Shown: piece by piece, positions 55,876 to 56,607 of the stretch
How the letters are laid out: each line of letters starts with the position of its first letter
Position numbering within the stretch: position 1 is the stretch's first letter
Assembly (NCBI GenBank): GCA_964637115.1
Contig: CAZWVL010000006.1
Location: 23,696 to 87,695, forward strand
DNA length: 64,000 bases
From: an uncultured Methanosarcinales archaeon
GTDB lineage: Archaea; Nanobdellota; Nanobdellia; Woesearchaeales; ARS49
Reading direction: 5' to 3'
Made by a program: the position numbers and the translations under genes
Notes under the pieces: generated by a model
The model's database searches: none
The model's input: only the letters and a program-made list of their open reading frames with translations
What the model was told of the DNA's origin: nothing

Positions 55876-56607
55876 CTAAAACTTAACACCGATCTGCACG
55901 GCGCCAAAAAATGAATCTATGTCTGACTTTTCGCCGGCAAATTCAGCGTCAAAATGCTCATAGCCCAGGGAGCCACCAGCATACCATTTTTCTGAGGTTT
56001 TGAATAGGACGTCTGCCCTTACGTGCTTACCCCAGCCAGCCCACCTTTCGTGCTGCACTGGATCGAATCTGCCATAACGCTCATGACCTGATTCAACATC
56101 AAAACGCGAGTAAGGCATTCCTCCCTCTAATCGGAAAATAAATTTGCCCACTGTTGCCTCCAAGCCAGCGAGTGGCATAACGGTGTATGATTGCAATAAT
56201 CTCGTATCAACAAATGAGCCCTGCTCTGGAGGACGAGGATCAGACGATTGCTGCTTTCTTGCGTCGATGAGTGACAAACCACTATACTTCAAATCTCCCC
56301 CTACATATACACGAAAGTCAGGAACACCAACAGAAGCAGCCACTCCGGCTTTCACAGCGCCGCCTGGCCCGCTAGGGTTGCGAGTGGTTGTTGAACCGGA
56401 TAGGAAAGAAGCATCAGAGGGATGCACTGGAGTGGTACGAAGTTCCCTGCTTACAGTGGCTTTTGTATAAAACGCATCCATGCCAACGCGGTATTCTGGA
56501 ACCACTGAAAAATCCTCAGGAATCTTTGGCTTCAAGTATACTGCACAGCCAGATAGCGTCAAAGCAGCCAATCCTGTTACAATTCCGTTCATAAGTTTTT
56601 TTATCAT
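55876..56607 (-). CDS. Lipobox-containing protein with outer-membrane beta-barrel-like sequence
   Basis: LSGC lipobox, alternating amphipathic strands, C-terminal AVQIGVKF. Confidence 0.55.
   Translation of the reverse strand: MIKKLMNGIVTGLAALTLSGCAVYLKPKIPEDFSVVPEYRVGMDAFYTKATVSRELRTTPVHPSDASFLSGSTTTRNPSGPGGAVKAGVAASVGVPDFRVYVGGDLKYSGLSLIDARKQQSSDPRPPEQGSFVDTRLLQSYTVMPLAGLEATVGKFIFRLEGGMPYSRFDVESGHERYGRFDPVQHERWAGWGKHVRADVLFKTSEKWYAGGSLGYEHFDAEFAGEKSDIDSFFGAVQIGVKF

Follow-up and report, generated by a model that had tools for sequence, protein, structure and literature searches.

The locus

The window, the whole stretch of 64,000 nucleotides that was analysed, carries on its minus strand a run of sugar-phosphate genes, within which lies the gene for a predicted lipid-anchored beta-barrel protein. 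The features discussed here are listed below in the order in which the minus strand is read, with positions counted in the window.

57912-58859, plus strand: AbrB-like regulator, 315 aa, divergent; weak MazE/AbrB match, C-terminal domain matching no family
56604-57812, minus strand: divergent phosphoglycerate kinase (PGK), first gene of the operon; Pfam PGK, 137 bits
55876-56607, minus strand: barrel lipoprotein gene, 243 aa, stop codon at 55876-55878; from the list of open reading frames, the family and the predicted fold
56545-56607, minus strand: signal peptide, residues 1-21, with the lipobox L-S-G-C at its end and Cys21 at 56545-56547; read from the sequence
55879-56511, minus strand: predicted eight-stranded beta-barrel domain, residues 33-243; from AlphaFold2, VIA-align and the hydrophobic strand faces
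56374-56457, minus strand: loop 1, long and conserved, residues 51-78; QTTPVHPDD..FL.G.TTT as family consensus; contributes to the conserved polar cap at the barrel end remote from the termini
55879-55911, minus strand: last strand with beta-signal-like end (F233 to G-V-K-F243); alternating hydrophobics and a terminal aromatic
54766-55803, minus strand: IMPase/FBPase-like phosphatase, downstream of the barrel gene; Pfam Inositol_P, 38 bits; start codon uncertain
53357-54809, minus strand: two overlapping orphan genes of 296 aa and 189 aa; weak DUF4032 match only, not conserved in other loci
52163-53356, minus strand: PPi-type phosphofructokinase (PFK), last gene of the operon; NCBIfam PRK14072, 307 bits

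The operon genes are all oriented alike and either overlap or stand a short gap apart. The ATG of the barrel gene overlaps the stop codon of PGK by four bases (ATGA, within ACATGA), and the barrel gene is translationally coupled to PGK. A preliminary description of this DNA, made from the letters only, had placed the gene by overlap in a sugar-phosphate operon, and the overlap with PGK together with the IMPase-like and PPi-PFK genes downstream bears this out. The 99-bp AT-rich intergenic region between PGK and the divergent regulator (57813-57911) holds TATA-like boxes. The IMPase-like gene has a TTG start (55803) with no obvious ribosome-binding site (55801-55835, minus strand); an ATG at 55819, with GGAGG before it, lies in a different frame, and the true start may be an internal ATG at about residue 22. 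Elsewhere in the window, the region 601-35652 is unusually dense in PMT_2/DUF2298-type membrane glycosyltransferase genes, at least nine of which fill the first half, and an open reading frame of 2361 aa at 36732-43817 has a higher GC content.

In one related locus (L006), PGK lies upstream of the barrel gene and the IMPase-like gene downstream, as in the window; in genome G002, the end of the barrel gene is shared with an overlapping PFK gene. A GH113 (mannanase-family) lipoprotein gene adjoins the barrel gene in three genomes (G206, locus L008, 23-1126 and 1456-2244; G260, locus L010, 423-1148 and 1161-2618; G413, locus L023, 8385-9491 and 9507-10271), and in G206 and G260 the barrel and GH113 proteins carry nearly identical signal peptides on unrelated bodies. 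Of 10 loci, 6 have a homologue of the AbrB-like regulator at a distance of 0.1-6.6 kb from the barrel gene, and they belong to different families of the order. Three unpublished genomes (G206, G422 and G525; loci L008, L016, L019, L020 and L024-L026) bear on one of the three GH113 neighbourhoods and three of the six regulator neighbourhoods, and are included in the tallies given below. Taken together, the PGK/PFK/IMPase context in two lineages and the GH113 context in three others point weakly to capture or processing of carbohydrates at the cell surface, or to host contact.

Precursor and protein family

The precursor begins with MIKKLMNGIVTGLAALTLSGC, a typical Sec signal peptide in which an n-region (KK) and an h-region are followed by the lipobox L18-S19-G20-C21, in agreement with the bacterial-type pattern [LVI][ASTVI][GAS]C. 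At the other end, the protein closes with ...FFGAVQIGVKF, where V-Q-I-G-V-K-F has the alternating hydrophobics and terminal aromatic of a C-terminal beta-signal. The reading frame, the LSGC lipobox and the Q-I-G-V-K-F terminus named in the preliminary description are thus all present on the minus strand.

A full profile search recovered 171 cluster representatives at E<=1e-3, 141 of them at E<=1e-10, nearly all 230-280 residues in length; clusters were formed at 50% identity. Since the family is kept across about 170 such clusters, the open reading frame is more than a chance one. Nine relatives, of 37-70% identity, were found by a word-indexed search. The lipobox is present in 88 of 144 full-length members, most of the remainder having ordinary signal peptides. 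The beta-signal-like end proposed earlier proved to be a property of the family: 115 of the 144 full-length members (80%) end in F, W or Y, versus 8.6% of the open reading frames of at least 150 aa in the source genome (G000), and in an alignment of 64 sequences hydrophobic residues occupy positions -3, -5 and -7, with K or R in most sequences at -2.

The window protein matched no Pfam or NCBIfam family above cut-off. Its sole Pfam match was Autotransporter, at 16.7 bits, below the 26-bit cut-off, and the Pfam scan gave it no match to PF13505 (OMP_b-brl). When the 64 aligned members were scanned singly, 7 of them matched PF13505 at E<=0.01 (best E 4e-7), and the other Pfam matches were Autotransporter, Opacity, OMP_b-brl_2, Pom and Legionella_OMP, all of them outer-membrane barrel families. 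Neighbours in a protein language model were small bacterial outer-membrane proteins, which are taken as leads only. A profile search of PDB sequences gave nothing besides a lipobox-driven match to mycobacterial LpqN (E 0.08). The loop-1 motif IQTTPVHPDD (56436-56456, minus strand, residues 51-57 onward) resembles IQETPVHHGD, which follows the LpqN lipobox region (PDB 6e5f/6e5d); the common stretch 'IQ.TPVH..D' is probably due to chance.

Counting paralogues in the genome, as the preliminary description had proposed, yielded none in G000. One weak match there (C8:68501-69661) was discarded on account of a C-terminus that is not barrel-like. Also set aside was P0133, a Thr/Gly-rich repeat protein of 4217 aa, whose 17 matched stretches are compositional.

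Predicted fold and hydrophobic belt

AlphaFold2 modelled an eight-stranded barrel both from 10 sequences (pLDDT 85.3) and from 64 (pLDDT 93.8, pTM 0.83), the five models of the latter set scoring 92.8-93.8 with the same topology. Both models are closed antiparallel meanders with an even number of strands, which span residues 34-50, 79-95, 98-112, 132-153, 156-177, 180-203, 208-223 and 226-242. Turns of 2-4 residues lie on the side of the termini. The opposite side bears a long loop 1 (51-78), in which short helices and bridges are modelled, a long loop 2 (113-131) and extended hairpins. About eight amphipathic strands had been proposed from the sequence, and the three segments quoted for them correspond to strands beta3 (98-108), beta5 (156-166) and beta7 (208-218) of the models.

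The best Foldseek matches of the barrel model are all outer-membrane barrels. By VIA-align, the model matched NspA with Z 18.5 (rmsd 3.3 over 154 residues), followed by the Legionella Dot/Icm 'porin III' (17.9), the OprF N-domain (17.4), OmpW and a designed transmembrane barrel (both 16.5), OmpA (16.3), Thermus TtoA (15.5) and PagL (15.4). Soluble eight-stranded barrels, including designed barrels, avidins, YceI and TbpB lobes, gave Z of 13 or less. The comparison with AlphaFold and Foldseek, which the preliminary description had suggested as a check, therefore agrees with the OmpA/OmpW-class fold that it had in mind.

In the alignment of 64 sequences, each of the eight strands contains a run of 4-7 alternate positions that are hydrophobic, variable and about 0% charged. 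Examples of such stretches are V35-A45, G83-V93, F98-G110, Y141-V153, F156-Y166, V196-F202, W208-L214 and F233-F243, and the hydrophobic belt spans about 11-13 residues per strand. On the opposite face stand conserved glycines and charged residues (R40, D44, K86, G88, G94, R99, G103, D105, K107, G148, E150, E161, G163, G193 and E217), which we infer to line the interior. So assigned from periodicity and conservation, a variable, greasy exterior around a conserved, Gly-rich polar interior is the pattern of a lipid-embedded barrel, the reverse of that of a lipocalin-type soluble barrel, and it is found on all eight strands. The earlier suggestion of a captured gene repurposed as a soluble barrel is unsupported, because a variable hydrophobic face free of charge marks a barrel embedded in lipid, and the lower Z of the soluble barrels likewise speaks against it. 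A non-barrel fold or a hydrophilic surface had also been considered beforehand; what was found is an eight-stranded barrel with a surface that is hydrophobic by sequence periodicity.

Beyond the belt, the polar half holds the most conserved residues of the family, namely T58, H62, D65, Q120, R125, S131, S173-G174-H175-D176-R177, W189, E217 and F223. T58, H62 and D65 are present in 57-59 of the 64 sequences, E217 in 60, S173 in 50 and H175 in 49. As read from these sequences, so conserved a cap is more suggestive of a site for specific binding or catalysis than of an adhesin, which would vary.

Comparison with known barrels

The predicted protein most resembles the small barrels of diderm bacteria: NspA (1p4t), the N-domains of OmpA and OprF (3nb3, 4rlc), OmpW (2f1t) and OmpX/Ail. 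With these it shares an antiparallel arrangement of eight long strands, joined by short turns near the termini and by long loops or extended hairpins at the opposite end, as well as a hydrophobic belt, a polar Gly-rich face (the inferred interior) and a terminal Phe after K or R. It differs from them in having no significant sequence match, in being N-terminally lipidated by prediction and in its large, strongly conserved loop-1 cap. Unlike the eight-stranded barrels of diderms, it comes from an archaeon whose genome gave no match to BamA or LolA. A link to PF13505 and its clan MBB is given by the 7 matching members, whereas the window protein itself falls outside every curated model of the clan, having no PF13505 match and an Autotransporter score below cut-off. 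A dedicated model is needed for the family.

PagL, a lipid A deacylase (2erv), is likewise an eight-stranded barrel and has a conserved Ser-x-His on one strand. At the sequence level, however, the family shows no relation to PagL, some of its members lack the Ser or the His, and an archaeon is not expected to contain lipid A. The OprM/NodT outer-membrane factors are N-terminally lipidated, trimeric, 12-stranded channels with long helical domains, and they depend on Lol and BAM. They resemble the window protein in carrying a lipobox Cys at the periplasmic end of a membrane barrel, but the latter is a monomer-sized barrel of eight strands. BT1926-type outer-membrane proteins, which also have eight strands, a closed barrel and a large loop 1, have been modelled as radial oligomers formed through loop 1 (PMC12228718); the likeness is one of description and serves as a lead only.

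Host lineage and distribution

The source genome G000 comprises 1.27 Mb in 27 contigs and is 98% complete. It encodes TFIIB, carries intron-bearing tRNAs, with introns at the canonical position, on many contigs, and is uniform in composition between contigs. Of the large contigs, C6 correlates least in tetranucleotide usage (0.966), and it holds no tRNA or rRNA; within the window, no tRNAs and no Rfam matches were found, and no rRNA usable for taxonomy is assembled in G000. Three matches to sigma-70 region 2 were noted in G000 (C1:77605-78177, C1:20250-20822 and C1:111296-113629). They agree with the prevalence of sigma-70 genes in Woesearchaeota that one published study reports, mis-binning having been excluded there (PMC8204110).

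Sampling of 301 genomes of the same GTDB order showed the barrel family in 7; across the phylum, 8 of the 401 genomes of high quality have it, all of them in that order, on contigs of 115-697 kb. A scan of metagenomes with the family alignment gave 7 loci. On one of these contigs (L031), the homologue lies within 6 kb of Alba, S17e, tRNA-splicing (tRNA-intron) endonuclease and TFE-alpha. Because of TFIIB, the intron-bearing tRNAs, the restriction of homologues to one order and the archaeal neighbours on L031, the host is archaeal, a Woesearchaeales-type DPANN archaeon. A bacterial origin of the contig, against which the preliminary description had advised a check of taxonomy, is contradicted by the same evidence.

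Among the NCBI labels in the family are 'Candidatus Woesearchaeota archaeon' and one archaeal MAG; two clusters have possibly bacterial labels, one 'Deltaproteobacteria bacterium' and the other '[bacterium]'. In L032, on a contig of 336 kb, the homologue has a full-length MutS gene as its neighbour; a further homologue lies on a contig of 65% GC. Based on GC content, the full MutS gene and few matches to G000, the loci L032, L034 and L035 may be bacterial. In an unrooted FastTree phylogeny of 168 members, of which few are labelled, archaeal-labelled members are spread over the whole tree and the putatively bacterial ones fall mainly in one clade of 33 members. A recent transfer from bacteria to a single archaeal clade finds no support in this scatter, as far as a FastTree phylogeny with few labels allows. 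Found in so few genomes (7 of 301) and in changing gene contexts, the barrel is not a core part of the envelope.

Predicted lipidation and membrane insertion

G000 encodes a bacterial-type Lgt (PF01790, 252 bits; C2:146481-147194, L037) and a bacterial-type LspA (PF01252, 113 bits; C8:19989-20372, L038), each with its signature motif present, so the lipobox has its matching enzymes. The preliminary description had recognized the lipobox and missed this pair. About 30 open reading frames with a lipobox are present in G000. Among 121 genomes sampled from the order, each at least 90% complete, 114 contain Lgt (G112 and G132 being counted in this tally), and in closed single-contig genomes of the order Lgt and TFIIB stand on the same contig. 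Our literature search found no paper reporting Lgt or LspA in DPANN, and a paper of 2025 says that homologues of Lgt or Lsp had not been identified in archaea (PMC12462473).

Searches of G000 and of five further carriers of the barrel for Omp85 (PF01103) gave no match, while every diderm control genome was positive. The statement of the preliminary description that archaea lack BAM agrees with the searches of these six genomes. A search of G000 for LolA also found none. We know of no outer membrane described for the Woesearchaeales-type group. Because neither Omp85 nor LolA was found and no outer membrane is described, the barrel has no known route or destination.

Our search of the literature found no published outer-membrane-type barrels in Woesearchaeota; the only related remark concerns a possible distant relative of PopA in Altiarchaeales (PMC12228718). 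Two further proteins of G000, of 370 aa (C2:25299-26411, L040) and 349 aa (C4:18658-19707, L041), start with a signal peptide and have a C-terminus that looks barrel-like, with F as its last residue; neither matches a Pfam family.

Proposed mechanism and alternatives

We favour, with a probability of about 0.7, the reading that the gene product is a lipoprotein which a Woesearchaeales-type DPANN archaeon exports by Sec and whose residues 33-243 form an eight-stranded transmembrane beta-barrel of the OmpA/NspA/OmpW class. Within the superfamily of outer-membrane barrels (Pfam clan MBB), the protein would, on this explanation, represent an unnamed branch that has diverged very far. The precursor would be exported by Sec, Cys21 would be diacylglyceryl-modified by Lgt and the signal peptide then cut by LspA. 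Insertion of the barrel into a lipid bilayer would take place independently of BAM, whether unaided or with the help of some other factor. The conserved cap would then face away from the side of the membrane that has the lipid anchor and both termini. The barrel would be closed and would not act as a general pore, as the analogy with OmpA and OmpX suggests, and the cap (T58, H62, D65, R125, S173-G-H-D-R177 and E217) may constitute a specific binding or catalytic site. The receiving membrane may be the cell's own single membrane, an outer layer not yet described or the membrane of a host.

Among the alternatives, the one that we rank highest, although unlikely, also makes use of the fold. It holds that the protein, while anchored by its lipid in the archaeal membrane, places its barrel in that of a host cell, which may be a bacterial outer membrane, and there serves for attachment or as a conduit. 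Most DPANN archaea live as episymbionts, as is generally held and as PMC8204110 states; the genome shows no insertion machinery in our searches; possibly bacterial relatives exist (the 'Deltaproteobacteria bacterium' protein and L032 with its full MutS); and a patchy distribution is expected of an accessory gene for host interaction. However, a linker of only about 12 residues separates Cys21 from strand 1, the cap is strongly conserved in very distant members where adhesins are usually variable, the gene lies in housekeeping carbohydrate operons, and no host is known. Quite improbable, in our estimation, is a membrane-embedded enzyme acting on lipid or glycan in the manner of PagL or PagP, through S173-G-H175-D-R177 with E217 or D65. 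In favour of such a function stand the grouping of conserved polar residues in the cap, the GH113 lipoprotein neighbour in three lineages and the PagL match (Z 15.4, rmsd 2.7 over 136 residues), whose 14% identity is the highest in the list. No sequence match to either PagL or PagP was found, though, and the presence of Ser173 and His175 in only 77-78% of the 64 members weakens the catalytic reading.

Equally hard to favour is a soluble, lipid-anchored surface barrel of eight strands, of the lipocalin, YceI or avidin type, which would hold a hydrophobic ligand such as scavenged host lipid inside. The anchor is present, DPANN archaea are thought to depend on host lipids, and YceI, polyisoprenoid-binding and avidin-type barrels do match the model at Z 9-10. 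Outer-membrane barrels, however, are better by 3-8 Z units, every weak Pfam match is to an outer-membrane barrel family, and it is the hydrophobic face that is variable and uncharged whereas the polar face is conserved and has invariant glycines (G88, G94, G103, G148, G163 and G193). Bacterial contamination of the bin, or a bacterial contig, is by far the least credible of the explanations. The lipobox, the outer-membrane-protein fold, sigma-70, Lgt and LspA do look bacterial, and C6 is without tRNA or rRNA and has the lowest tetranucleotide correlation of the large contigs. Against this stand the homologues in 8 of 401 genomes of the phylum, confined to one archaeal order and lying on contigs of up to 697 kb, one of the homologues being placed beside Alba, S17e, tRNA-intron endonuclease and TFE; the co-occurrence of Lgt and TFIIB on closed single-contig genomes; the scatter of archaeal-labelled members over the family tree; and the Woesearchaeota sigma-70 genes for which the published account excluded mis-binning (PMC8204110).

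The favoured transmembrane lipoprotein admits of a wider extension, which is doubtful at this stage. Woesearchaeales might build outer-membrane-type beta-barrels without Omp85, either in a so far undescribed outer lipid layer, as part of a diderm-like envelope on which the order-wide Lgt/LspA pathway for lipoproteins would act, or by BAM-independent placement in a single membrane or a host membrane, and the family would be tied to the acquisition of sugars.

Implications

Beta-barrels with a C-terminal assembly signal are textbook markers of the outer membranes of bacteria, mitochondria and plastids, and their assembly depends on Omp85. What is new here is a distinct family of lipobox-bearing, eight-stranded barrels with a conserved cap, together with an order-wide count of Lgt. 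The near-universal presence of a bacterial-type Lgt in the order bears on the published statement that archaea have no identified homologues of Lgt or Lsp (PMC12462473). The mature barrel, of about 220 residues, is small and easy to express. A confidently predicted barrel that is conserved within an archaeal order, in genomes where no Omp85 was found, raises the questions of how the envelope of these uncultured, ultrasmall archaea is built and whether barrels of this kind can assemble without BAM.
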